A DNA stretch of 64,000 bases from Duncaniella sp. (GTDB lineage Bacteria; Bacteroidota; Bacteroidia; Bacteroidales; Muribaculaceae): NCBI GenBank assembly GCA_029060405.1, contig JAIDUB010000070.1, forward strand, positions 15,372-79,371. Direction: 5' to 3'. Positions 1-10,213 of this stretch are shown piece after piece; within the stretch, counting starts at the first letter, position 1; every line of letters begins with the position of its first letter. Both the position numbers and the translations under genes were made by a program. The notes under the pieces are model-generated. The model was given only the letters and a program-made list of their open reading frames with translations. It was not told the DNA's origin and made no database searches.

Positions 1-26
1 CTCAGGTACTATCATACCTTGATACC

Positions 27-1088
27 ATGCTACGCTTTTCACTGATCGCTGCAGCGGCCTTATGTGCGCTCACAAGTCAGGCTCAGGTGCGCTGGCTTGA
101 AAAGATTCATGATTTCGGAGCTTTCGATGAGGACCTCGGTACCGTGTATTGTGACTTCAAGTTTGTCAACGACGGCACGGAGGCATTAGCTATAGTGGCC
201 GCGAGAGCCAACTGCGGCTGCACCCGTCCGACATTTTCACATGAGCCCGTGGCTCCCGGCGACACGGCTGTGGTGACAGTGGGTTTTGACCCGAAAGGAC
301 GTCCCGGAAAGTTTGAAAAAAATATCTATGTAGAGACCGACGCCGAGCGCTCCCGCACGACCCTGAAGATACGCGGCACAGTGATAGGAGCCGGCAATAC
401 TCTCAAATCACGCTATCCGGTAGAGGCCGGGCCGATGCGTCTGCGCGGCACCACAGTGGCCTATGGACCTGTGATAAAGGATCACTCGGCGGTAAAATCG
501 CTCGAGGGATACAATGCCTCGGCCGATACACTCCGCCCTGTCATAGCCGGAGCGCCTAAGTATATCAACGTGATATGCGAGCCCAAGACCGTTCCCCCCG
601 GTGAGCAGTTTGTGGTGAGCTGTATACTGCACTCCGACCTCAGCAACGACTGGGGACTTACTACCGGCTCATTTACCCTCGCTCCGCAGCCCGGTGCCGA
701 GCCTGTCAATGTAGAGACAGTGGCTATCATAAAGGAAGACTTCTCTACCCTTACACCAGCGCAGATGGACAAGCGCCCTGTGATGACGCTCAGCGAATCG
801 CGCATAGACCTCGGTAAACTCGACCGCACGGAAAAGAAAATCACTCATTCGTTTAAGATTACCAACTCCGGTTCCGATCCGCTGATACTCCGTAGCGTCA
901 CCTGTCAGGATCCTGCCGTGACGCTTGATATCTCTACCACAAAAATCAAGAAAGGTAAGTCGGCGCGAGTCACGGTCACAGTAGATCCGGCTCTTCTCAA
1001 GCCGTCGGCACCTCTTAATACCCGTATTTCCATCATAGCCAACGATCCGGTCAACCCCACCGAAATGATAAGATTGACCGGGGAATAA
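27..1088 (+). CDS. DUF1573 domain-containing secreted protein (Ig-like repeats)
   Basis: Signal peptide; HDFG...FKFVNDG..L.I......CGCT motif typical of DUF1573; further Ig-like repeat at the C-terminus (FKITNSGSDPLIL). Confidence 0.8.
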   Translation: MLRFSLIAAAALCALTSQAQVRWLEKIHDFGAFDEDLGTVYCDFKFVNDGTEALAIVAARANCGCTRPTFSHEPVAPGDTAVVTVGFDPKGRPGKFEKNIYVETDAERSRTTLKIRGTVIGAGNTLKSRYPVEAGPMRLRGTTVAYGPVIKDHSAVKSLEGYNASADTLRPVIAGAPKYINVICEPKTVPPGEQFVVSCILHSDLSNDWGLTTGSFTLAPQPGAEPVNVETVAIIKEDFSTLTPAQMDKRPVMTLSESRIDLGKLDRTEKKITHSFKITNSGSDPLILRSVTCQDPAVTLDISTTKIKKGKSARVTVTVDPALLKPSAPLNTRISIIANDPVNPTEMIRLTGE

Positions 1089-1105
1089 AATTTTCTCGAG
1101 TAATC

Positions 1106-1324
1106 ATGGATAAGAATACCCTTGAATTCGTTACATATTGCATCAGTAAACTTGCTCAACAGCTGAAATTGAGCCAGAGCGATGTTTATGCCCGATTGAA
1201 AAATTCAGGTATTTTATATGATTATATAGTGCCTTCATATGACGTGCTTCATACGTTCAGTTCCCGTTATCTGATGAACGATATTACTGATTTCATGAAA
1301 GAAAAAGGAGTCTTACCCCAATGA
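1106..1324 (+). CDS. DUF3791-like small helical protein
   Basis: 72 aa, EFVTYCI...YDYIVPSYDVLHT pattern; ATGA overlap with next gene; AT-rich. Confidence 0.7.
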   Translation: MDKNTLEFVTYCISKLAQQLKLSQSDVYARLKNSGILYDYIVPSYDVLHTFSSRYLMNDITDFMKEKGVLPQ

Positions 1325-1791
1325 AGCTGTATCATTCTTCGTATATATCGGTCAGCAGACCTGATACTGAACATTCCCGGGATTTTCTTGATTTTGGCAG
1401 GGGATTTTACCTGACATCAATGGAGGAGCAGGCTGTGAGATATGCCCAGCGTTTTCTGCGTCGCAACAAGGTGGCATGGATAAATACTTATGAATTGGAA
1501 TTTGATCCTGCCGAATGGAAAATTCTCGAATTCGATGCCTACGATAAGATTTGGCTTGACTTTGTATCTAAGTGCCGGGCCGGTAAAGATGATACTGACT
1601 ATGATATGGTCATAGGTGGTATCGCCAATGATAAGGTTATTCAAACCCTCGACAGATATTTTGAAGGAGAGTTGTCGGAAAGCGAAACACTCGGATTACT
1701 TAAATATGAAAAGCCTAATAATCAGTATTGCATCCGATCGCAAAAAATGCTGAATGACTGTCTTAAACACATTGAAAGCCGACAACTATGA
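1321..1791 (+). CDS. DUF3990 family protein (putative ADP-ribosyltransferase-like fold)
   Basis: LYHSS...DFGRGFYLT...QA..YA, YD.VIG.IAND, QYCIRS motifs. Confidence 0.75.
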   Translation: MKLYHSSYISVSRPDTEHSRDFLDFGRGFYLTSMEEQAVRYAQRFLRRNKVAWINTYELEFDPAEWKILEFDAYDKIWLDFVSKCRAGKDDTDYDMVIGGIANDKVIQTLDRYFEGELSESETLGLLKYEKPNNQYCIRSQKMLNDCLKHIESRQL

Positions 1792-2009
1792 CCGAGGAAA
1801 GCAGAACAGTGATACGGGCATCAAAAGTGGCAAGAATAATAATGAGTCTGTGTGAACTGTATGGAATTTCGTTAGATGAAGCCACCGATATGTACTATAC
1901 CTCGGTTGTATCTGATATGATAGAGGAAGGGGTATCGGATCTCCAGTGCCGAAGTGAGAAATATCTTGCAACATTGATATGGGAAGAGAATCACGAGGAG
2001 AGGAAATAG
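1788..2009 (+). CDS. second DUF3791-like small protein
   Basis: 73 aa; YGISLDEATDMYYTS...IEEGVSDL..RSEKYLA; ATGA overlap with the DUF3990 gene. Confidence 0.65.
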   Translation: MTEESRTVIRASKVARIIMSLCELYGISLDEATDMYYTSVVSDMIEEGVSDLQCRSEKYLATLIWEENHEERK

Positions 2010-2014
2010 ATTAT

Positions 2015-2045
2015 TTTGACTTTTGTGAGATTTGTGCTAATTTTG
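2015..2045 (+). promoter_or_regulatory. Bacteroidetes housekeeping promoter (-33 TTTG, -7 TAATTTTG) for meaB
   Basis: TTTG at 2015-2018, 19-nt spacer, TAATTTTG at 2038-2045. Confidence 0.6.
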
Positions 2046-2077
2046 TTATCAGATAGTCAAAGCAAAATCTCTACCCG

Positions 2078-3184
2078 ATGGACAATATACAGCATCCTGA
2101 AAATGAGAGCTGCTACCGGTCGCTTAATGTGAATCAGGGACCGGAAAAACAGCCCCCTGTAGTTAATCCCTATCTCACCCGCGTGCGCCGCAAGCCTATC
2201 CCCTCGGCCGGAGAACTTGTGGAAGGTATACTGAAAGGTGACGTGACAGTGCTGTCGCGCGCCGTCACGCTTATCGAAAGCCTCAATCCGCAGCATCAGG
2301 CCGTGGCTCAGGAGGTGATAGAGAAGTGTCTGCCCTACTCGGGCAACTCGCGGCGCATAGGTATCACCGGTGTGCCGGGTGCAGGTAAATCCACATCGAT
2401 TGATGTGTTCGGGCTTCATGTGCTGCGCGACGGCGGCCGGTTGGCGGTACTTGCCATCGACCCGTCGAGCGAGCGCACAAAGGGAAGTATTCTCGGTGAC
2501 AAGACGCGCATGGAGAAGCTGTCGCAGCATCCTTCGGCATTTATACGCCCCAGTCCTTCGGCAGGGTCGCTGGGCGGTGTGGCCCGCAAGACACGCGAAA
2601 CTATAGTGCTCTGCGAGGCTGCGGGTTTCAACAATATTTTCGTCGAGACCGTAGGCGTGGGTCAGAGCGAGACTGCCGTGCACTCTATGGTGGATTTCTT
2701 CCTGCTCATCCAGCTTGCCGGCACGGGCGACGAATTGCAGGGTATAAAGCGCGGCATCATGGAGATGGCCGACGGTATAGTGATCAATAAGGCTGACGGT
2801 GACAATATCGACCGTGCCCGTCTTGCGCAGGCTCAATTCCGCAGTGCGCTGCATCTTTTCCCGCCTACAGCGTCGGGCTGGCAGCCCGAGGTACTCACCT
2901 ACTCCGGCTATTTTGAACTCGGCATTCCCGAGGTGTGGGATATGATCGACCGGTATTTCGCTTTCGTGAAGGCCAACGGATATTTCGAGCGCCGCCGTCT
3001 GGAGCAGGCCCGTTACTGGATGTACGAGACCATCAACGAGAAATTGCGCGACCATTTCTATTCCAATCCCGTGGTGGAAAAGATGCTTGCCGAGAAAGAG
3101 GAACGCGTGCTGGCCAATATGCAGAGCTCGTTTACCGCCGCCCGCGATGTGCTCGACGCCTACTTTAATGAATGGAAAATTTAA
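2078..3184 (+). CDS. meaB: methylmalonyl-CoA mutase-associated GTPase
   Basis: GITGVPGAGKST P-loop, LAIDPSS, GSILGDKTRM, ETVGVGQSE, GDELQGIKRGIMEMAD. Confidence 0.95.
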   Translation: MDNIQHPENESCYRSLNVNQGPEKQPPVVNPYLTRVRRKPIPSAGELVEGILKGDVTVLSRAVTLIESLNPQHQAVAQEVIEKCLPYSGNSRRIGITGVPGAGKSTSIDVFGLHVLRDGGRLAVLAIDPSSERTKGSILGDKTRMEKLSQHPSAFIRPSPSAGSLGGVARKTRETIVLCEAAGFNNIFVETVGVGQSETAVHSMVDFFLLIQLAGTGDELQGIKRGIMEMADGIVINKADGDNIDRARLAQAQFRSALHLFPPTASGWQPEVLTYSGYFELGIPEVWDMIDRYFAFVKANGYFERRRLEQARYWMYETINEKLRDHFYSNPVVEKMLAEKEERVLANMQSSFTAARDVLDAYFNEWKI

Positions 3185-3290
3185 GAATTTAAAAATTTAA
3201 AATGGAGAATTTGGAATTGCTGATCCAATAGCTTATAATTCCAAATTCTCCATTTTCAATTCTCCATTCTCCATTCTAAATTTAAAGAAT
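3176..3290. repeat. AT-rich heptamer-repeat element with 20-bp perfect inverted repeat (probable bidirectional terminator)
   Basis: AAAATGGAGAATTTGGAATT (3199-3218) and AATTCCAAATTCTCCATTTT (3237-3256); flanking ATTCTCC/AATTTAA 7-mers; lies between convergent genes. Confidence 0.8.
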
Positions 3291-3758
3291 GGGAAGGATT
3301 GCTTCCGGAAACGGGGGTGAGAGAAGTGATTGTGCACGGGCGAGGTATTCGGCGGCGAGTGTTGAGAACGCATCGGCACTTGCCGGTGACTCGGGACGCC
3401 ACACGCGCATTATAGAGGCTACCGTGCCGAGCGCTATTATCTGTTCCATTGCCGAAAGCAGCATGTCGGCTTCCACGCTGCCGAAGCCGCGGGGAGTGTT
3501 GAAGCTGAGATTAAACCGGTCAAAAGCCATATCGGCCTGCGGTATCTCGGCTTCGTCGATATATCGCCGGAGATTTATGGTCATTTCGATATAAGACTGG
3601 AGCATGAGTTGCTTCACGAGCGGAAGCCGGAAATCCTCGAGCAGTGGACTCAGGGGATGAGCGCCCTCGCCCTCGCCGTCATTGTCGGCAAGAATCTGCA
3701 TGGCGGCGAGGGAGCGGGCGATCGGGAGAATTTTCTCGGTGTAAAGTGTGTAGTTCAT
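3282..3758 (-). CDS. hypothetical protein, possibly phage head-tail adaptor-like
   Basis: 158-aa intact ORF; C-terminal helical segment (LLSAMEQIIALGTVASIM...AEYLARAQSLL) resembles connector proteins of Bacteroidales prophages from memory; sits in the portal cluster. Confidence 0.5.
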   Translation of the reverse strand: MNYTLYTEKILPIARSLAAMQILADNDGEGEGAHPLSPLLEDFRLPLVKQLMLQSYIEMTINLRRYIDEAEIPQADMAFDRFNLSFNTPRGFGSVEADMLLSAMEQIIALGTVASIMRVWRPESPASADAFSTLAAEYLARAQSLLSPPFPEAILPIL

Positions 3759-3776
3759 AGCATCATGATGTTATTT

Positions 3777-4142
3777 TCAGATTTTCGCGGCGATATGCCG
3801 GGCTGTGACGGGTGAGATGAAGAAGCTCGATGCGGTGGCCGTGCGTAACACAGCCTCTACGGCACGATGGTAACCGTAGCCGCGGGCTTCAAACGAGTCA
3901 ACCTTGCGGCTGATTTCAGCCCACATGGCACGGCGTAGCGGGCTGATTGTCGCGAGCTCTCCGCGGCGGTATTCGCGCACCGTCCGCACGGCCATATCAT
4001 AGCTCACGTAGTAGCACGGGGCCTCGGAGGCAGCCGCCCGTGATGCCAGTGCCGAGAGTGACTCGGGCGCGTGATTGAGTTCCATTATTTCCTTACAGCG
4101 GCGTGAGAAATCGCGGTTACGCCTTTCGATGAGTTCAAGCAT
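3777..4142 (-). CDS. hypothetical phage-associated helical (putative DNA-binding) protein
   Basis: 121 aa, basic; ERRNRDF...APCYYVS...MWAEISRKV...SSFFISP resembles a small protein found beside terminase/portal genes in Bacteroidales prophages (recollection, unverified). Confidence 0.55.
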   Translation of the reverse strand: MLELIERRNRDFSRRCKEIMELNHAPESLSALASRAAASEAPCYYVSYDMAVRTVREYRRGELATISPLRRAMWAEISRKVDSFEARGYGYHRAVEAVLRTATASSFFISPVTARHIAAKI

Positions 4143-4182
4143 ATAGATAAGATTTTGGTGTGGTTATTTACTATTGTTATTG

Positions 4183-4190
4183 CAAAAATA
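4183..4190 (-). promoter_or_regulatory. -7 promoter element TATTTTTG upstream of the 121-aa gene
   Basis: CAAAAATA on + strand, about 40 nt upstream of the ATG at 4142. Confidence 0.45.
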
Positions 4191-4225
4191 CCATGGTATA
4201 TGGGCGTAACAACCACGCTTCACTG

Positions 4226-5536
4226 TTAATTGCTGTTAATTTTACAGATGGTAGCGCATTTTGCAAGCTTTTCATCGCGCACGGTGCGGAAGGTATTGAA
4301 GGTCTCGAAAATATCGAGCAGGGCTATCGCCGAGTTCTGAATCTGGCTTTCAAACATGGTGGCCGACTGGTTGGCGGCCGAAGTCTGTCCCTGAAGTGCT
4401 GCAGAAACTCCTGAGATCTGCCGCATCATGTTCATCTCGATATCGAGCAGTCGGGCCGCATTGTCGGTCGACGCTTCGGAATTGAGCTGTGTGGGAATGC
4501 GACCGGCAGTGCCGTCGATGGGAATCACGCCACCGGGGCGATTCCATAGCGCCACGGCATCGGCTATTGAAAATCCGTCGGGCTGCGACTCGAGCGGATA
4601 CAGAAGCACGCCCTTAGCCGATACTGCCAGCACATGGTCGATCATGGTGATGAGGCGGTTGATGTGGCGCTGCTGCTCCACGATATCCTCTATGAAAGGA
4701 TGCACTTCGCCATCGGTGAGCGGATAGAACTTCACTACAAAGGGATGTGATCCGTCGGCATACGGCGATACCGTGTGGTCGAGCAGCATGCCGCAGGGAG
4801 CATAAAATCGGCAGTGCCATTCCACTTTGTAGGATGTGGAGGAAGCGGCTGAGCGTCGGTTGCCGGTATAATCGAGCGTCCACACCTCGATTACGCGGCA
4901 TTTACCGTCGGCCGACGCACTGAAAAAAGTACCGGGTTGAGGGGTGAAAGCTGTGGAGCAATCGGCCTCGCGGCAGTTGCGGCGCCATGTGTCGCGTATC
5001 ATGCGCACCCGTCGGGCGTTTCCGTGCCCGAATCTCATTATCATCTGCTCGCAGTCCATTTCGTGGAGCATGCCTATAAGTTCTATATCGGTGCCGCGGG
5101 GATCGGTGAAGGGATTACAGAAAAACATGGCCGGTGATACTTTGTCGGCCCATGCGCCGCAACCCTCGGGACGCTTCTCGGCTACCACGCGCTGAATGGC
5201 GCACCCCGATATGAGAAACTCCTCGAGTGTGCGGGCATCCAGTTCGTCGAGGCGGTTGAATACCGGTGCTGTGCTCTGTTGGCGCTTCCCGGCCGCGATA
5301 TTGTAGCGGAATCGCCCCACCACACTCTTGACAAGCGAGCGCAGCAGATTGTTGGTGAGCGGAGTCTTACCCAGCGCGCGCACGGCATCACCCTCGGTGA
5401 TGATACGCCCCGTCGCATCGGCCACGGGCCACGACCATTGGTCGCCGTAGGTGAAATTCTTGAGCCGGGTGCGCGAGCGGCGCAGAGGTGCCATCGCCTC
5501 CCATGCGGCATGGGCGCGTTCAAACGGTGAAGTCAT
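4226..5536 (-). CDS. phage portal-like protein (P22-type), C-terminally short
   Basis: R..LKNFTYGDQW, PLTNNLLRSLVKSVVG.FR, EEFLISG, IEDIVEQQRHINRLIT, RQISGVS.A.QG motifs; likely start MTSPF at 5536 (ORF is open to 5587). Confidence 0.75.
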   Translation of the reverse strand: MTSPFERAHAAWEAMAPLRRSRTRLKNFTYGDQWSWPVADATGRIITEGDAVRALGKTPLTNNLLRSLVKSVVGRFRYNIAAGKRQQSTAPVFNRLDELDARTLEEFLISGCAIQRVVAEKRPEGCGAWADKVSPAMFFCNPFTDPRGTDIELIGMLHEMDCEQMIMRFGHGNARRVRMIRDTWRRNCREADCSTAFTPQPGTFFSASADGKCRVIEVWTLDYTGNRRSAASSTSYKVEWHCRFYAPCGMLLDHTVSPYADGSHPFVVKFYPLTDGEVHPFIEDIVEQQRHINRLITMIDHVLAVSAKGVLLYPLESQPDGFSIADAVALWNRPGGVIPIDGTAGRIPTQLNSEASTDNAARLLDIEMNMMRQISGVSAALQGQTSAANQSATMFESQIQNSAIALLDIFETFNTFRTVRDEKLAKCATICKINSN

Positions 5537-6089
5537 ATTTCGGTTCATCTTCAATAATAGTGGATAAAGCTGAGGAATCAAATTCATAAATGCCGTCGGT
5601 CATCACCACGGCGCGGAAAGTAAGCAGCTCGTCATCGGCTATATAAGGATACAGGCTTATGACATTGGAGTGCATGAGAGCCGTCGGGTCATCGGGACTT
5701 GACATGGTGAACGGGCTTGACTGACGGCGGCGCACGCGGCGTATAGTTCCTTCGGGAAAAGCGTTGTCGTGGAGCAGGCGTGCCGGAGCATTCCAGCCAC
5801 GCATCCTTATCGACAGTATTCTTACGACCTCGGGAGGCACCACTACCTGCGCGCCACCTCGGCCGTCGGGCCGCACTTCGAGCCCGTCTTCAATGTCGCG
5901 CGGCGCAAGCATGTGTTCAGGCGCTGTGAGCAGCAGGTTGAAATACCATTTCTTAACCTCCTCCGTGACTATCATGTCCATGTCGACGCCGTCGTTACGG
6001 CTCACGACCGCCGCGAGCGGCACTGTGTTGAGGCGGCGCAGGGTGAGCCATCGCTCGTTCATCTGCGCTTGAGTGAGTGTGAGTTTCAT
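5520..6089 (-). CDS. hypothetical protein, phage head-completion-like
   Basis: 189 aa; G.AQVVVPPEVVRILSIRMRGW..P motif resembles neck proteins of Bacteroidales prophages (recollection); stop overlaps the portal start. Confidence 0.5.
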   Translation of the reverse strand: MKLTLTQAQMNERWLTLRRLNTVPLAAVVSRNDGVDMDMIVTEEVKKWYFNLLLTAPEHMLAPRDIEDGLEVRPDGRGGAQVVVPPEVVRILSIRMRGWNAPARLLHDNAFPEGTIRRVRRRQSSPFTMSSPDDPTALMHSNVISLYPYIADDELLTFRAVVMTDGIYEFDSSALSTIIEDEPKYDFTV

Positions 6090-6109
6090 AGTATATGCGG
6101 TTTTTAGCG

Positions 6110-6117
6110 CAAAGTTA
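6110..6117 (-). promoter_or_regulatory. -7 promoter element TAACTTTG for the phage-like operon
   Basis: CAAAGTTA on + strand, 20 nt upstream of the ATG at 6089. Confidence 0.6.
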
Positions 6118-6187
6118 CCTCCACGGCGCCCGTGTATATTGCGATAGTAGCCGGGAAGCAGTATATTTGCATCCGAAATTATGATTA

Positions 6188-6748
6188 CTCACTTCGTTCG
6201 TAACACGATGGAGATGATACCAATCCCTACCTGCGGCAGCCTGTAGCGCCGCGCTATAACCGCCGTGCACATCACCACGATTATACCCGCCCCGCCCGAT
6301 ATATGATTACTCTTAAGGTGGCGCCGCACATTCCGGCGCTCCCTACCGTAACAGGCAATCCGGCCACTGTCGATGTGGATTTGTGACGGCTGGATTGATT
6401 GTATTGAAAACGGAGGTGTCCTGATCTCGCCGTTCATTCATCCGGTGGAGAATGATATGAGAAAAACGGCTGTGGAAAGCGGCGGCTCGATAGTGAGAAT
6501 TACCGACAACGGCTTTCCCGAGCGGTTTTCGCCCTCGGGGAGTGAATTTGAAATGTTAGGATCAGGGAGGCTTCTTCTCTTAGGAGAGCTGAATTACAAT
6601 TCACGCAAGCAGAATATGAGCTACCGTTGGGCCGGGCGCCTCAACCGATTGGCCGAGATGCTTGCCTCTCACCCCGAAGGAATGACCATGCGCCTCGCCT
6701 CAAGGTGAAAAAAATTCCTCACTCCGATCGTGGTCCGAACGAAGTGAG
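6188..6748 (+). mobile_element. non-autonomous remnant of a RAYT/IS200-like transposase element bounded by 13-bp inverted repeats
   Basis: CTCACTTCGTTCG (6188-6200) and its reverse complement CGAACGAAGTGAG (6736-6748) flank two transposase-like fragments. Confidence 0.6.
6204..6708 (+). pseudogene. internally deleted Y1/RAYT transposase-DprA-like fusion
   Basis: Frame 3 from 6204 reads RRAHHHDYTRPARYMITL (RAYT-like N-terminus) and stops near 6386; frame 1 from 6373 reads ENGGVLISPFIHPVE...GRLLLL (Rossmann/DprA-like C-terminus); no HUH core in between. Confidence 0.6.
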
Positions 6749-6771
6749 GATTATAAGGATAATAGCTGTTT

Positions 6772-8802
6772 TTAAGCGAGATATTCCTTGACGAGGGCGG
6801 TGACGGCGTCGGTGGTGAAGCCGAATTTTTCGTCGAGCACCTTGTAGGGGGCCGATGCACCGAAGTGGTCGAGACCGAATACCTTGCCGTTGCGACCCAC
6901 TACGCCACGCAGTGTGGAGGGAAGACCGGCGGTGAGACCGAACACCTTCACGTCGGCGGGAATCACGCTCAGGCGGTATTCCTCGGGCTGGATGTCAAAG
7001 AGACCTATCGAGGGAACGGATACCACGCGGGCTTTCTTGCCTTCGGCGGCCAGACGCTCGGCTACCTCTACGAGGAGCGAAACTTCCGAGCCGTTGGCCA
7101 CGAGCACCACATCGGGGTTCTCGGCCTCTACCACCACGTAGCCGCCGCGCTTCATGCCGGCTTCGGCCTCGGCATAGCGGTCAGATGCTACGGCGGGCAG
7201 GTCGGGGAGATTCTGGCGCGAGAGCACGAGTGCGGTGGGGGTGTCGAAGTTTTCCATCGCCATCTTCCATGCCACGGAGGTCTCCACGGCATCGCCGGGA
7301 CGGAGCACGAGCATCGAGGGACGTCCGGCGAAATTCTTGAGTTCTTCCATGAGGCGGAGCTGTGCTTCCTGCTCCACGGGCTCGTGGGTGGGACCGTCCT
7401 CGCCCACGCGGAATGCGTCGTGAGTCCAGATGTATTTCACGGGGAGTTCCATCAGTGCAGCCATGCGCACGGCGGGTTTCATGTAGTCGCTGAACACGAA
7501 GAATGTGCCGCATGCGCCTATCACGCCGCCGTGGAGCACGATACCGTTCATGATGGCGGCCATGGTGAGTTCCGATACACCTGCGTGGAGGAATGCGCCC
7601 GAGAAATCACCGTTGGTGAACGGATGGGTTTTCTTCAGGAATGCGTCGGTCTTGTCGGAGTTGGCGAGGTCGGCCGACGATACTATCATGTTGTTGACCT
7701 TCTCGGCGAGAACTGCGAGCACGTCGGCTGAAGCCTGACGGCTGGCGATGTTGGCCTTGTGAGGTATTGCCTTGTAGTCGATTTCGGGAAGCTTGTTGGC
7801 GAGGAAGTCCTTGAGCTCGCGGGCGAGTTCGGGGTTGGCGAGTTCCCAGTCGGCCTGAGCCTTGCGGCGGGCGGCCACGATGGTGCGGAGCTCGGCGTGA
7901 CGAGCCTCGTAGAGCTTCTTGACATCATCGAAAATCACGAAAGGATTCTCGGGATCGGCGCCGAGGTTGCGCATTGTGGCGGCATAGTCGGCACCGGCTG
8001 CGCTCAGAGGCTGGCCGTGGGTGGAGCACTGACCCTCGAAATTGGAGCCGTCGGCCTTCACCACGCCGCGACCCATTACGGTGTGGCCTATGATGATGGT
8101 GGGGCGCTTGGTCTCGTGCTGAGCGGCGGTGAGAGCCTGAGCTATTTCCTCGGGGTTGGTGCCGTCGATTTCGAGCACGTTCCAGTGCCATGCGCGGTAT
8201 TTTGCGGCTACATCCTCGGTGTCAACGGCGTTGACGTAGGTTGAGAGCTGCACTTTGTTGCTGTCGTAGAACATGATGAGGTTGCTCAGTCCCAGATATC
8301 CTGCTATGCGGCCGGCACCCTGAGATATTTCCTCCTGTATACCGCCGTCGGAGATGAAGGCGTAGGTCTTGTGGCTCATCCACTCGCCGAAGCGTGCGGC
8401 GAGGAAGCGCTCGGCTATGGCGCAACCCACGGCCATGGTGTGGCCCTGACCGAGGGGGCCGGAGGTGTTTTCAACGCCGCGCTCGGGATGAAGCTCGGGG
8501 TGTCCGGGTGTGGGTGAGCCCCACTGGCGGAACTGCGAGAGTTCCTCGGTGGTATAGTGGCCGAAAAGAGCCAGCACGCTGTAGAGCATGGGCGACATGT
8601 GGCCGGGATCGAGGAAGAAGCGGTCGCGGCCGAGCCATGTGGGATCATCGGGGTCGGTCACGAGAAACTGCGAGTAGAGCACATTTACGAAGTCGGCGCC
8701 GCCCATGGCACCGCCGGGATGTCCCGATTTGGCCTTTTCGACCATCGAGGCAGCAAGAGCGCGGATATTGTCGGCCGCGCGGTTGAGAGTCTTGATATCC
8801 AT
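6772..8802 (-). CDS. tkt: transketolase
   Basis: SGHPGGAMG, DRFFLDPGH, SGPLGQG, SDGGIQE, THD..RVGEDGPTHEP. Confidence 0.97.
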   Translation of the reverse strand: MDIKTLNRAADNIRALAASMVEKAKSGHPGGAMGGADFVNVLYSQFLVTDPDDPTWLGRDRFFLDPGHMSPMLYSVLALFGHYTTEELSQFRQWGSPTPGHPELHPERGVENTSGPLGQGHTMAVGCAIAERFLAARFGEWMSHKTYAFISDGGIQEEISQGAGRIAGYLGLSNLIMFYDSNKVQLSTYVNAVDTEDVAAKYRAWHWNVLEIDGTNPEEIAQALTAAQHETKRPTIIIGHTVMGRGVVKADGSNFEGQCSTHGQPLSAAGADYAATMRNLGADPENPFVIFDDVKKLYEARHAELRTIVAARRKAQADWELANPELARELKDFLANKLPEIDYKAIPHKANIASRQASADVLAVLAEKVNNMIVSSADLANSDKTDAFLKKTHPFTNGDFSGAFLHAGVSELTMAAIMNGIVLHGGVIGACGTFFVFSDYMKPAVRMAALMELPVKYIWTHDAFRVGEDGPTHEPVEQEAQLRLMEELKNFAGRPSMLVLRPGDAVETSVAWKMAMENFDTPTALVLSRQNLPDLPAVASDRYAEAEAGMKRGGYVVVEAENPDVVLVANGSEVSLLVEVAERLAAEGKKARVVSVPSIGLFDIQPEEYRLSVIPADVKVFGLTAGLPSTLRGVVGRNGKVFGLDHFGASAPYKVLDEKFGFTTDAVTALVKEYLA

Positions 8803-8934
8803 TTGACAGGTAATATGATTAGTTTTTCTTATTGTGTTTCCGGTCTTTATTTTTCAGGTGTATTGTGCTGAATATCGACACAATATACCGCAAATATAAG
8901 CATTTTTCGCGATAATTCCCGATATTTGCCGTGA

Positions 8935-8982
8935 AAAAACGAGCTGCGGGTGCGCAGGGGAAACTTTTCCCGCGCACCCGCA
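8935..8982 (-). terminator. intrinsic terminator after hpf
   Basis: TGCGGGTGCGC (8945-8955) and GCGCACCCGCA (8972-8982) stem; T-run on the minus strand a few nt further. Confidence 0.7.
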
Positions 8983-9006
8983 ATTATTCGTTACGATGAG
9001 GTGGTG

Positions 9007-9294
9007 TTACTTGTTTTTGATCTTCTCGAGCTGGCGTTCGATTGCTTCGAGGCAGAGGTCAACGGCTTCCTCGAAGGTGTCGGCAGTCTTGTCGGCCACC
9101 ACCTCTTCCTGAGGCAGGAGGACTTTCACGATGGCCTGCTTGTTCATGGCCGTCTCGGGTTTTACTACTTTAAGAGATACGTCGGCGGTGGTGATGGCCG
9201 GATTATGACGGGCGACGCGCTCGAGTTTCTTGTTGATAAACGATGTGAGTTTCTCGGCGATGTCGAAGTGGATGGCTTTGATGTTAATGTCCAT
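9007..9294 (-). CDS. hpf: ribosome hibernation promoting factor / RaiA
   Basis: MDINIKAIHFD...TADTFEEAVDLCLEAIERQL.K.K. Confidence 0.9.
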   Translation of the reverse strand: MDINIKAIHFDIAEKLTSFINKKLERVARHNPAITTADVSLKVVKPETAMNKQAIVKVLLPQEEVVADKTADTFEEAVDLCLEAIERQLEKIKNK

Positions 9295-10213
9295 TTTGTC
9301 CTCCTTTTTTTAGGGCACGGGGGTGTGCTTGTTGATAATTTTGTTGTAGTTCTCTATTACTCAGATGAGTATAAACCTGTGTCGAAGCGAGTGAGGCATG
9401 ACCCAGAAGTTGCTTTACGGTGTTGAGACCGGCGCCGGCGTTGAGCATGTCGGTAGCCATCGAGTGGCGCATCACGTGAGGGCTGCGGCGGGCGGCGTGC
9501 ACATCGGCCGCCTCCATGCAGCGCCGCATTATGCGGTATATGTCGTGTCGCGAGAGCGGAAGCCCGTTGACACTCACAAGCAGCGTGTCGACTTGTACTG
9601 AAGCACCCTCCGGTGCGGGACGCAGTGGCCGGTAACTGTCGATCATCTCCGCCAGCCGCTGACTGATGGGGATGATCCTGTCTTTATTACGCTTGCCGTG
9701 CACTTTTAGTTCACGGCGACGTGTATCGGTGTTGACATCGAGCAGCCCGGTGAGCTCGCTGCAGCGCATCCCGGTATCGTAGAGCAACTCTCCTATAAGA
9801 CGGTCGCGGACGTTCTTGAACTCATTGGCCGAGTCATATACCTCGCTCCCTGCGTCGAGCATGGCGGCCGTCTCGTCGGGGCGCACGTTGAGCGGCAGCC
9901 GCTTGGGGAGCCGGGGTGTGTTGAGCGCGGCGGCGGGATTGGTCTTCATGCCGTGGTTGCGCATCATGAATTTGTAGAATGATTTGAGTGCCTGCACCTT
10001 ACGCTTCAGTGTGGCAACTGATACTCCCTGCCGGCTGAGATGCGACATGTAAAGCCGCAGATCGGAAACGGTGACGTCGGTGACATCGAGCCGCGACATA
10101 TCGCCGTCGGTGGCCCATTCAGCCCATTGCTCGAGGTCGCGGCGGTAGGCAGCCGCGGTGTTGGGCGAATAGTTGAGCTCGAGGCTCAGATAGTCGATGA
10201 AGCGGTCGATCAT
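9284..10213 (-). CDS. xerC: tyrosine recombinase XerC-like
   Basis: YSPNTAAAYRRDL, LLYDTGMRCSEL, VHGKRNKDR, HVMRHSMATDML, LLGHASL.STQVYTH; start MIDRF at 10213; xerC-hpf order is typical of Bacteroidetes. Confidence 0.85.
   Translation of the reverse strand: MIDRFIDYLSLELNYSPNTAAAYRRDLEQWAEWATDGDMSRLDVTDVTVSDLRLYMSHLSRQGVSVATLKRKVQALKSFYKFMMRNHGMKTNPAAALNTPRLPKRLPLNVRPDETAAMLDAGSEVYDSANEFKNVRDRLIGELLYDTGMRCSELTGLLDVNTDTRRRELKVHGKRNKDRIIPISQRLAEMIDSYRPLRPAPEGASVQVDTLLVSVNGLPLSRHDIYRIMRRCMEAADVHAARRSPHVMRHSMATDMLNAGAGLNTVKQLLGHASLASTQVYTHLSNRELQQNYQQAHPRALKKGGQNGH

Follow-up and report, generated by a model that had tools for sequence, protein, structure and literature searches.

In Rhodobacter, the genes of the gene transfer agent (GTA) RcGTA are found at several loci, and among the phage satellites the capsid-forming phage-inducible chromosomal islands (cf-PICIs) form capsids themselves and take only tails from their helper phage. 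The closest published analog of the locus described here is FpGTA of the gut commensal Faecalibacterium, a podovirus-like GTA that is split in two operons (PMC12946183). We analyzed a 64,000-nucleotide (nt) stretch of Duncaniella sp. contig JAIDUB010000070.1 (termed the window, with all coordinates counted from window position 1) that carries a cassette of four phage-derived genes, A, portal, C, and D, on the minus strand between meaB and the transketolase gene (tkt). We hold with about even confidence that this cassette represents one locus of a podophage head-and-packaging module that is ancient and vertically inherited, was domesticated and later fragmented, and builds GTA-like DNA-packaging particles. 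The cassette was not found described in the literature, nor was a GTA-like element found there for Muribaculaceae or Bacteroidota; the cassette thus far appears to be undescribed. Muribaculaceae are a dominant family of the mouse gut and are common in other mammals, with little known of their gene exchange and phage biology; phage head and packaging genes selected throughout this family would, if the interpretation is true, be a candidate for capsid-mediated DNA transfer.

Cassette genes and their phage relatives

ORF calling identified four intact, co-oriented open reading frames (ORFs) on the minus strand in the order A, portal, C, D: (i) gene A (5520..6089; 189 amino acids [aa]), encoding a predicted homolog of podophage head-to-tail adaptor/ring proteins; (ii) a gene for a P22-type portal-like protein (4226..5536; 436 aa); (iii) gene C (3777..4142; 121 aa), which is phage derived and predicted to fold as two tandem three-helix repeats; and (iv) gene D (3282..3758; 158 aa), encoding a small, fast-evolving protein. 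The cassette is convergent with meaB (2078-3184, plus strand; Pfam MeaB, 2.8e-103), and its other flank is occupied by tkt (6772-8802). Independent gene calls on the public contig gave the same four proteins (189, 436, 121, and 158 aa), and because these calls give 436 aa for the portal, its start is most likely at 5536 and not at 5587, where the longest ORF begins. The genes are closely spaced, with a 17-nt overlap of A and portal and gaps of 83 nt between portal and C and of 18 nt between C and D. The GC content of the cassette (0.565) is close to that of the window (0.547), the GC content at third codon positions (0.63-0.67) is the same as that of meaB and xerD, and the cassette composition is ameliorated to host values. 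An earlier reading of the sequence, the first-pass annotation, had described four intact, co-oriented, tightly packed ORFs of host-like GC between meaB and tkt, and the ORF analysis and the public gene calls agree with it.

The portal-like protein matched Pfam P22_portal (PF16510) at 8.4e-15 (54.7 bits versus a cutoff of 26.1) and the portal family phrog_156 at 1.7e-29, which upholds its first-pass assignment to the P22 type, and its profile matched the PDB portal 8jov at 6e-5. The closest portals of cultured phages were those of Bacteroides phages BS-TP4, BKO1-TP3, and BF1-TP2 (29-31% identity), and IMG/VR was found to contain many gut phage contigs of 35-68 kb that form a large family and encode portals with 31-36% identity. 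The protein is shorter than these relatives (436 aa versus 620-680 aa), and the Pfam match stops at model position 432 of 594, short of the full-length phage portal architecture. The same truncation was found in all host-type portals, which end at one common alignment column and are without the C-terminal 130-150 aa and about 40 N-terminal aa of the phage relatives. In a neighbor-joining tree, the host-type portals formed a single clade separate from the phage portals. About 2,000 database relatives of 420-490 aa were detected, many on megabase contigs. The homolog in Duncaniella dubosii is named a "PAS domain-containing protein" in NCBI/UniRef (RefSeq), which looks like a misannotation; the proteins are otherwise annotated as hypothetical.

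The product of gene A had no match in Pfam, NCBIfam, or PADLOC, and its profile search against PDB sequences was without significant match. An AlphaFold2 (AF2) model based on 95 diverse homologs (predicted local distance difference test [pLDDT] score of 92.2) has three helices and a beta-sandwich, as in podophage adaptor and ring proteins. When this model was compared with the PDB by Foldseek, the best matches were ring proteins of phicrAss001, namely 7qoj_D (2.5e-4, probability 1.00), 7qoj_E (8e-4), and 7qog_B, with further matches to tail or adaptor chains of SU10 (7z4f_H), Pa223, KHP30, and LME-1; at TM-scores of 0.3-0.4 and sequence identities of 8-13%, these are fold-level matches. The phicrAss001 ring proteins consist of three helices and a beta-sandwich, with ring 1 sitting on the portal clip (PMC10172136). 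The phage homolog of A, phrog_22135, ends 3 nt before the portal start in one of the related phage contigs (L108), and a phrog_22135 homolog is located near the capsid gene in BS-TP4 and BF1-TP2. This link was reciprocal when the ORFs of every fetched locus were searched iteratively with profiles. The host protein ends short of its phage homologs, which carry an additional C-terminal helix of about 40 aa. Based on the modeled fold, backed by gene order, A is a predicted homolog of podophage head-to-tail adaptor/ring proteins, and the first-pass label of this ORF as neck-like is corrected to adaptor. For both proteins, a structural relationship to phage components is borne out, by profile for the portal and by Foldseek for A.

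Genes C and D were also linked to the phages. The phage homolog of C, phrog_27246, is encoded directly upstream of a small ORF and the large terminase gene (terL) in related phages. Host and phage profiles of C aligned by hhalign with a probability of 99.1% (E-value 1.2e-18), and the link was reciprocal in the iterative searches. No Pfam, NCBIfam, PADLOC, or PDB-profile match was found for C. Its AF2 model is confident (pLDDT 94.1) and displays the two tandem three-helix repeats, yet it had no significant Foldseek match, with best E-values of 1.5 (PDB) and 0.95 (BFVD). No recognizable small-terminase or DNA-binding fold was thus found for C, and the "DNA-binding-like" label given to it earlier is not supported; it is only the position beside the large terminase (TerL) in the phages that hints at a small-terminase-like role. 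The phage relatives of D, phrog_19255, are two to three tandem paralogs downstream of the endolysin gene (L108:14122-15654, with equivalents in L096-L166). The link was weaker for D (hhalign probability 93%, E-value 2.9e-7) and was found from the host side only in the iterative searches, and D is probably related to these paralogs. D had no Pfam, NCBIfam, or PADLOC match and no significant match among PDB sequences; a match to a designed repeat protein at 3e-4 was rejected as low-complexity helical similarity. When C and D were joined as one query, only six close homologs of D were returned and none of C. In the phages, the tandem D-like paralogs lie between the endolysin gene and a large ORF termed X (see below), and they recall the multiple paralogous ring proteins of crassviruses. 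As judged from these comparisons, all four genes trace back to a single family of Bacteroidales phages, the BS-TP4-like phages of 50-68 kb, with the link of D being probable.

The cassette is also associated with host-type expression signals. The octamer TAnnTTTG, which we take to be the Bacteroidetes -7 promoter element, was found on the minus strand as TAACTTTG at 6110..6117, 20 nt upstream of the A start, and as TATTTTTG at 4183..4190, 40 nt upstream of C. A single octamer is weak evidence by itself, because the window holds 30 copies versus 19.4 ± 4.5 expected. In related loci, the 120 nt preceding A contained the motif in 34 of 73 cases and those preceding C in 42 of 55, compared with a background of 4.7% of random windows. 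This recurrence above background suggests two host-type transcription units, A-portal and C-D, and shows that both motifs noted in the first-pass annotation are not only present but conserved in position in related loci. Between D and the convergent meaB, RNA folding predicted a strong hairpin followed by a T-rich tract (3204..3255, minus strand); the fold of 3185-3285 on this strand reached -33 kcal/mol (z = -6.2), and none of 200 shuffled sequences folded as well. This hairpin is likely a bidirectional terminator that closes the cassette.

Inheritance and selection of the cassette

Genomes were scanned at one per species, and the relatives found in 536 genomes were used for analysis of distribution, with the context counts that follow taken from the best 80 of these. 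The A-portal pair was detected in at least 536 species genomes, nearly all Muribaculaceae, and the best 80 were Muribaculaceae-type genomes, including the complete genome CP061009. Among the latter, A was directly upstream of portal in about 76, followed by C in about 59 and by D in about 57. Six of the loci (L002, L004, L005, L006, L009, and L027) have Muribaculaceae-type synteny and are metagenome-assembled genomes (MAGs) labeled Staphylococcus, Lachnoclostridium, or Paenibacillus; these look mislabeled or mis-binned. The flanking genes varied by lineage, including: (i) meaB and tkt, found in the window and the four relatives closest to it; (ii) thiH/thiF and LOG/DUF4271/hemD/rnpA in many Duncaniella-type genomes; and (iii) rpsT, ribF, PEPCK, rpsA, and greA in other lineages. 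No integrase, replication gene, repressor, att feature, or other phage module was found beside the cassette in any inspected genome.

The ratio of nonsynonymous to synonymous substitution rates (dN/dS) was calculated against the nearest relative, at an unsaturated dS of about 0.5-0.6. Among the four genes it was lowest for portal (0.038), followed by D (0.065), A (0.090), and C (0.101), compared with 0.006 for tkt. Furthermore, the pairwise identity of the portal tracked that of its neighbors in 22-26 syntenic genomes (r = 0.76 for LOG, 0.84 for DUF4271, 0.54 for ThiH, and 0.57 for ThiF), and the mean identities in these genomes were similar, at 0.56-0.58 for the portal versus 0.62-0.66 for the neighbors. 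The ORFs were intact in hundreds of species at protein identities of 45-95%. The portal was possibly broken in 3 of the 80 loci, all of them MAGs (L023:9992-11281, L045:9793-10749, and L078:7816-9157), which may be real pseudogenes or assembly errors. These comparisons indicate that the four genes are vertically inherited and under purifying selection among housekeeping genes.

The selection on the genes, their co-divergence with neighboring genes, the single clade of host-type portals, and the small number of broken loci therefore rule out a decaying prophage as well as a recently mobile element. In the inspected genomes the cassette did not display the marks of a prophage, whether integrase, att site, phage modules, patchy distribution, or pseudogenes. 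A functionless remnant of an old prophage in which decay is still pending would account for the small share of a phage genome that the cassette represents, for its truncated proteins, and for the three portals that are possibly frameshifted (L023, L045, and L078). Against it stand the dN/dS values of 0.04-0.10 for all four genes at unsaturated dS, the intact ORFs in hundreds of species, the conserved promoter motifs, and the host-like composition, and the three broken loci are MAGs that may contain assembly errors. We regard a remnant as barely conceivable, and the selection and conservation data effectively refute it. The proposal of a domesticated module in place of a decaying prophage, made in the first-pass annotation, is thus sustained by synteny and selection: dN/dS is far below 1, the pair occurs in 536 species genomes and co-diverges with its neighbors, no more than 3 of 80 portals are possibly broken, and the cassette was never found inside a prophage in the inspected genomes.

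Capsid, terminase, and holin genes in related genomes

Additional genes of phage origin were associated with the cassette in relatives of the window. An SU10-type capsid gene was located immediately upstream of A in 31 of the 80 genomes, with matches to Pfam SU10_MCP of up to 1e-51. These capsid copies were 52-65% identical to each other, and the portals of the capsid-bearing genomes were at most 49% identical to that of the window. Two capsids on large contigs were examined, and both were in the usual capsid-A-portal arrangement. A small ORF, termed S (105-170 aa, with weak coiled-coil-like matches), preceded the capsid gene in about 24 loci (e.g., L075:7336-7845, L087:4804-5280, and L089:1412-1822, plus about 20 others) and may encode a scaffolding protein. 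In the portal tree, the capsid-bearing arrangement was basal and paraphyletic, while the capsid-less A-portal-C-D arrangement marked derived clades, including that of the window; some capsid-bearing lineages were without C-D nearby.

The most complete arrangement was found on three short IMG/VR contigs with a short host-type portal, in which X (695 aa), TerL, S, capsid, A, portal, C, and D were encoded in this order on one strand (L087/L089). On a Muribaculaceae contig (L167), A-portal-C-D was followed by a holin gene, by nadA and two unrelated genes, and then by X (779 aa) and TerL, with the X-TerL pair 9 kb off. Several IMG/VR "viral" contigs (L087-L091 and others) carry a short host-type portal that nests inside the host clade, and these are probably chromosomal fragments. 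The cassette genes thus trigger false "viral" calls, and several chromosomal fragments sit in IMG/VR. One of these contigs, L091 (IMGVR_UViG_3300035327_000422), has at 1-10106 a near-perfect inverted duplication, with capsid-A-portal-C-D followed by its mirror, which is probably an assembly artifact.

A metagenome scan for TerL identified about 50 loci with terL located among ordinary cellular genes, and the contigs that carry them are up to 330 kb long. No portal, capsid, A, or C was found within 10 kb of these chromosomal loci, and X preceded TerL in 31 of the approximately 50. In the separate X-TerL loci (L170-L220; e.g., L189:7894-11866 and L194:7704-11767), X is about 660-820 aa and is followed by the large terminase. 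Some of the genes that flank the separate TerL loci are 72-78% identical to genes in Muribaculaceae loci. The chromosomal TerL proteins formed a clade apart from phage and prophage TerL, and they keep the same conserved motifs (KARQWGGST, VD[IV]GG, ESN, and HDD), with the P-loop-like ATPase motif and the acidic nuclease motifs intact. X is homologous to an 892-aa phage ORF beside the D-like paralogs; X could be assigned to no family, and its profile search against PDB sequences gave no significant match. The chromosomal X-TerL pair looks like another locus of this domesticated system. When these arrangements are compared, the ancestral order is best reconstructed as X-TerL-S-SU10-type capsid-A-portal-C-D, in a module that would have been fixed in the ancestor of Muribaculaceae; a single acquisition of the phage-derived set in the form of one contiguous cluster is probable, with fragmentation and partial loss thereafter. 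The resulting mosaic is a natural series from the full cluster to capsid-adaptor-portal and to adaptor-portal-C-D, which bears on which parts of a phage head a cell can reuse.

A full set of particle genes was thus not detected in the window: capsid, S, TerL, X, and holin are encoded in relatives, either adjacent to the cassette or at other loci, and a tail gene was recognized in neither. The 64-kb window was searched with profiles of the capsid, the scaffold-like S, TerL, X, and holin of this system without a match, with general phage libraries not run on every window gene. The sole recombinase gene within 10 kb of the cassette is a XerD-type gene beside hpf, which is syntenic in the nearest relative. 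The first-pass statement that the window has no other phage gene accordingly stands for these five components and for recombinases near the cassette and is not exhaustive for other phage genes. Four close relatives (L002, L003, L004, and L006) have a holin gene (Phage_holin_4_1-type) immediately upstream of A, while in the window and its nearest relative (L001) this position is taken by 680 bp of unrelated sequence that contains orf111. The lineage of the window keeps only the portal-neck part at the cassette locus, and the adjacent holin has been replaced. With only this part left, either the genome keeps capsid and terminase genes outside of the window, or its portal-adaptor core is put to use on infecting related phages, whether against them or together with them.

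One alternative is that the ring was exapted apart from capsids, with the portal and adaptor serving as a cellular channel or scaffold and the phage-like partners elsewhere being leftovers. The A-portal core does persist where the capsid, C-D, and holin have been lost from the locus, and the truncations take away parts of the portal that, judging by the domains of P22-like portals, presumably face the capsid interior. However, no signal peptide or membrane segment was apparent in the translations, which were read by eye and without a prediction tool. In addition, the capsid gene of relatives is more conserved than the portal and TerL keeps its catalytic motifs, which argue that a capsid-related function is still selected in the family. 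We consider exaptation of this kind very unlikely.

Two neighboring regions of the window were also examined. The 680-bp spacer between A and tkt (6090-6771) is common only to the window and L001. Within it, orf111 (6373-6708, plus strand) is a gene in the public record with no family match and no other homolog among the fetched loci; its interpretation as a capsid or holin remnant was rejected, since it has no similarity to either. Across meaB, at a distance of 1.3 kb from the cassette, a DUF3791-DUF3990-73-aa ORF array (1106-2009, plus strand) matched the three components of the PADLOC candidate defense system PDC-M13 (1.9e-26, 2.1e-52, and 2.7e-20). This candidate system was also found in L001 and L002, and its GC content of only 0.41, versus 0.55 for the window, suggests recent acquisition. 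In another locus (L253:20514-21407), an HRDC-domain ORF followed by a reverse transcriptase gene (RVT_1) was located about 7 kb downstream of a capsid-A-portal-C-D cassette.

Proposed function and comparison with known systems

If the cassette is one locus of a GTA-like system, its products could act as follows. Host promoters would express A-portal and C-D. The shortened portal is predicted to form a ring at one capsid vertex, with A as an adaptor ring on the portal clip, and C and D may serve as accessory neck or packaging factors. An SU10-type capsid protein encoded elsewhere would make the shell, which TerL would fill with DNA. The resulting phage-like particles would be tail-poor, would package DNA as GTAs do, and may be released by the holin. 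Of the functions offered as examples in the first-pass annotation, it is one locus of a split GTA that has gained support, through the capsid and S genes in the cassette of relatives, the separate X-TerL loci, and the contiguous cluster; the other two, an exapted nanomachine and an antiphage decoy, are ranked here as rivals.

Several findings weigh against a GTA-like function, as (i) no recognizable tail, nozzle, or fiber gene was found in any part of the system; (ii) the C-terminal region kept by all phage relatives is missing from the portal, as is the C-terminal helix from A, and normal assembly is therefore not assured; (iii) no genome in the clade of the window had a capsid, S, TerL, X, or holin gene at a distance of up to 10 kb from the cassette; and (iv) the losses are mosaic, with capsid-A-portal kept in some lineages and A-portal-C-D in others, which fits a system that needs all of its parts only if the missing parts have moved elsewhere. 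No RNA sequencing run was found to contain the window's cassette, and for the related locus L013 the runs labeled "RNA?" had flat depth over 25-kb contigs, which marks them as DNA. Among the best 120 of more than 2,919 capsid-family matches, none was named Duncaniella, which is at most suggestive for the window's clade. If there were no capsid and TerL elsewhere in the genome, A-portal-C-D must act without a capsid of its own, and a decoy or helper piracy would then lead.

In the decoy explanation, the crownless portal and shortened adaptor would assemble into the portal vertex of infecting BS-TP4-like podophages or cap it, with C possibly acting on the terminase, and so poison procapsid assembly or DNA packaging, a role that would have replaced the particle role in the window's clade. 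No part other than A and portal is kept in every lineage, and these two are strongly selected in a clade with no nearby capsid gene and no adjacent holin. Dominant-negative subunits would be expected to be truncated, as both proteins are when compared with the phage versions; related phages are abundant in gut samples; and the PDC-M13 candidate is only 1.3 kb off. However, lineages whose cassette still includes a highly conserved capsid gene have the same truncations, which therefore predate any switch to a decoy. Defense genes are usually patchy and of fast turnover, whereas the cassette is family-wide and co-diverges with housekeeping genes, and none of A, portal, C, and D matches a PADLOC model (PADLOC-DB v2, none at E ≤ 0.1). 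The identity to known phage portals of just 30-40% is low for co-assembly, and no Muribaculaceae phage with a close portal was found. Overall, a decoy is unlikely on this evidence.

Distinctly less probable is helper-dependent piracy by a chromosomally fixed, satellite-like element, in which a helper phage, infecting or resident, would have its capsid, terminase, and tail proteins redirected by the host portal, adaptor, and C to package host DNA, as a non-mobile analog of the cf-PICIs. The gene content, with portal, adaptor, and a terminase-neighbor protein in the cassette, capsid and TerL in relatives, and no tail, resembles that of capsid-forming satellites, and the lack of tail genes in any inspected locus fits helper dependence. 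Yet integrase, replication, repressor, and att features flank the cassette in no inspected genome, its presence is family-wide and syntenic and not strain-variable, and no helper phage was identified. A bolder statement, which we advance tentatively and consider rather unlikely, is that Muribaculaceae carry the first GTA-like domesticated podophage head system of Bacteroidota, which in the Duncaniella-type clade has been pared to a crownless portal and shortened adaptor (plus C and D), no longer makes capsids of its own, and targets the portal vertex of related phages upon infection, be it as a defense that poisons assembly or for helper-dependent packaging of host DNA.

The preferred explanation, a fragmented head-and-packaging module that builds GTA-like particles, was finally compared with known systems. 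Among podophage adaptor and ring proteins (phicrAss001 R1-R4 and the SU10 adaptor), the architecture is the same as that of modeled A and the gene adjoins the portal gene, but A is shorter, at 189 aa versus 220-240 aa. The BS-TP4/BKO1-TP3/BF1-TP2-like Bacteroides phages and their 35-68 kb IMG/VR relatives (PMC12694917) represent the source lineage and encode homologs of A, portal, C, the D-like paralogs, the SU10-type capsid, TerL, and X. These phages differ from the host system in having complete genomes of 50-68 kb with endolysin, very large proteins, and diversity-generating retroelements, and in their gene order and strands; the host copies are 30-40% identical and form separate clades. 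The cf-PICIs and other phage satellites likewise have a partial head module (capsid, portal, connector, and terminase parts) and no tail genes, but the cassette is without integrase, replication and regulatory modules, or att sites in its flanks and is vertically inherited, syntenic, and not strain-variable. Compared with the GTAs (FpGTA and RcGTA), the Muribaculaceae system is unlike in being known here from genes alone, in having no recognized tail or nozzle gene, in its truncated portal and adaptor, in the lineage-specific mosaic by which components were lost, with the window's clade showing the portal-neck part only, and in its lineage, the Bacteroidota. The likeness to GTAs is that phage head and packaging genes have a fixed place in the chromosome, are not accompanied by genes for integration, replication, or lysogeny, are kept lineage-wide under purifying selection, are split over more than one locus, and are associated with lysis genes in some genomes. 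In the cassette we likewise found phage-derived structural genes that are chromosomally fixed, vertically inherited, and under purifying selection, with no lysogeny or replication genes. By analogy, a GTA is thus the best-fitting known kind, and the cassette may be viewed as a domesticated GTA-type phage structural module with an unusual reduction to a portal-adaptor core.

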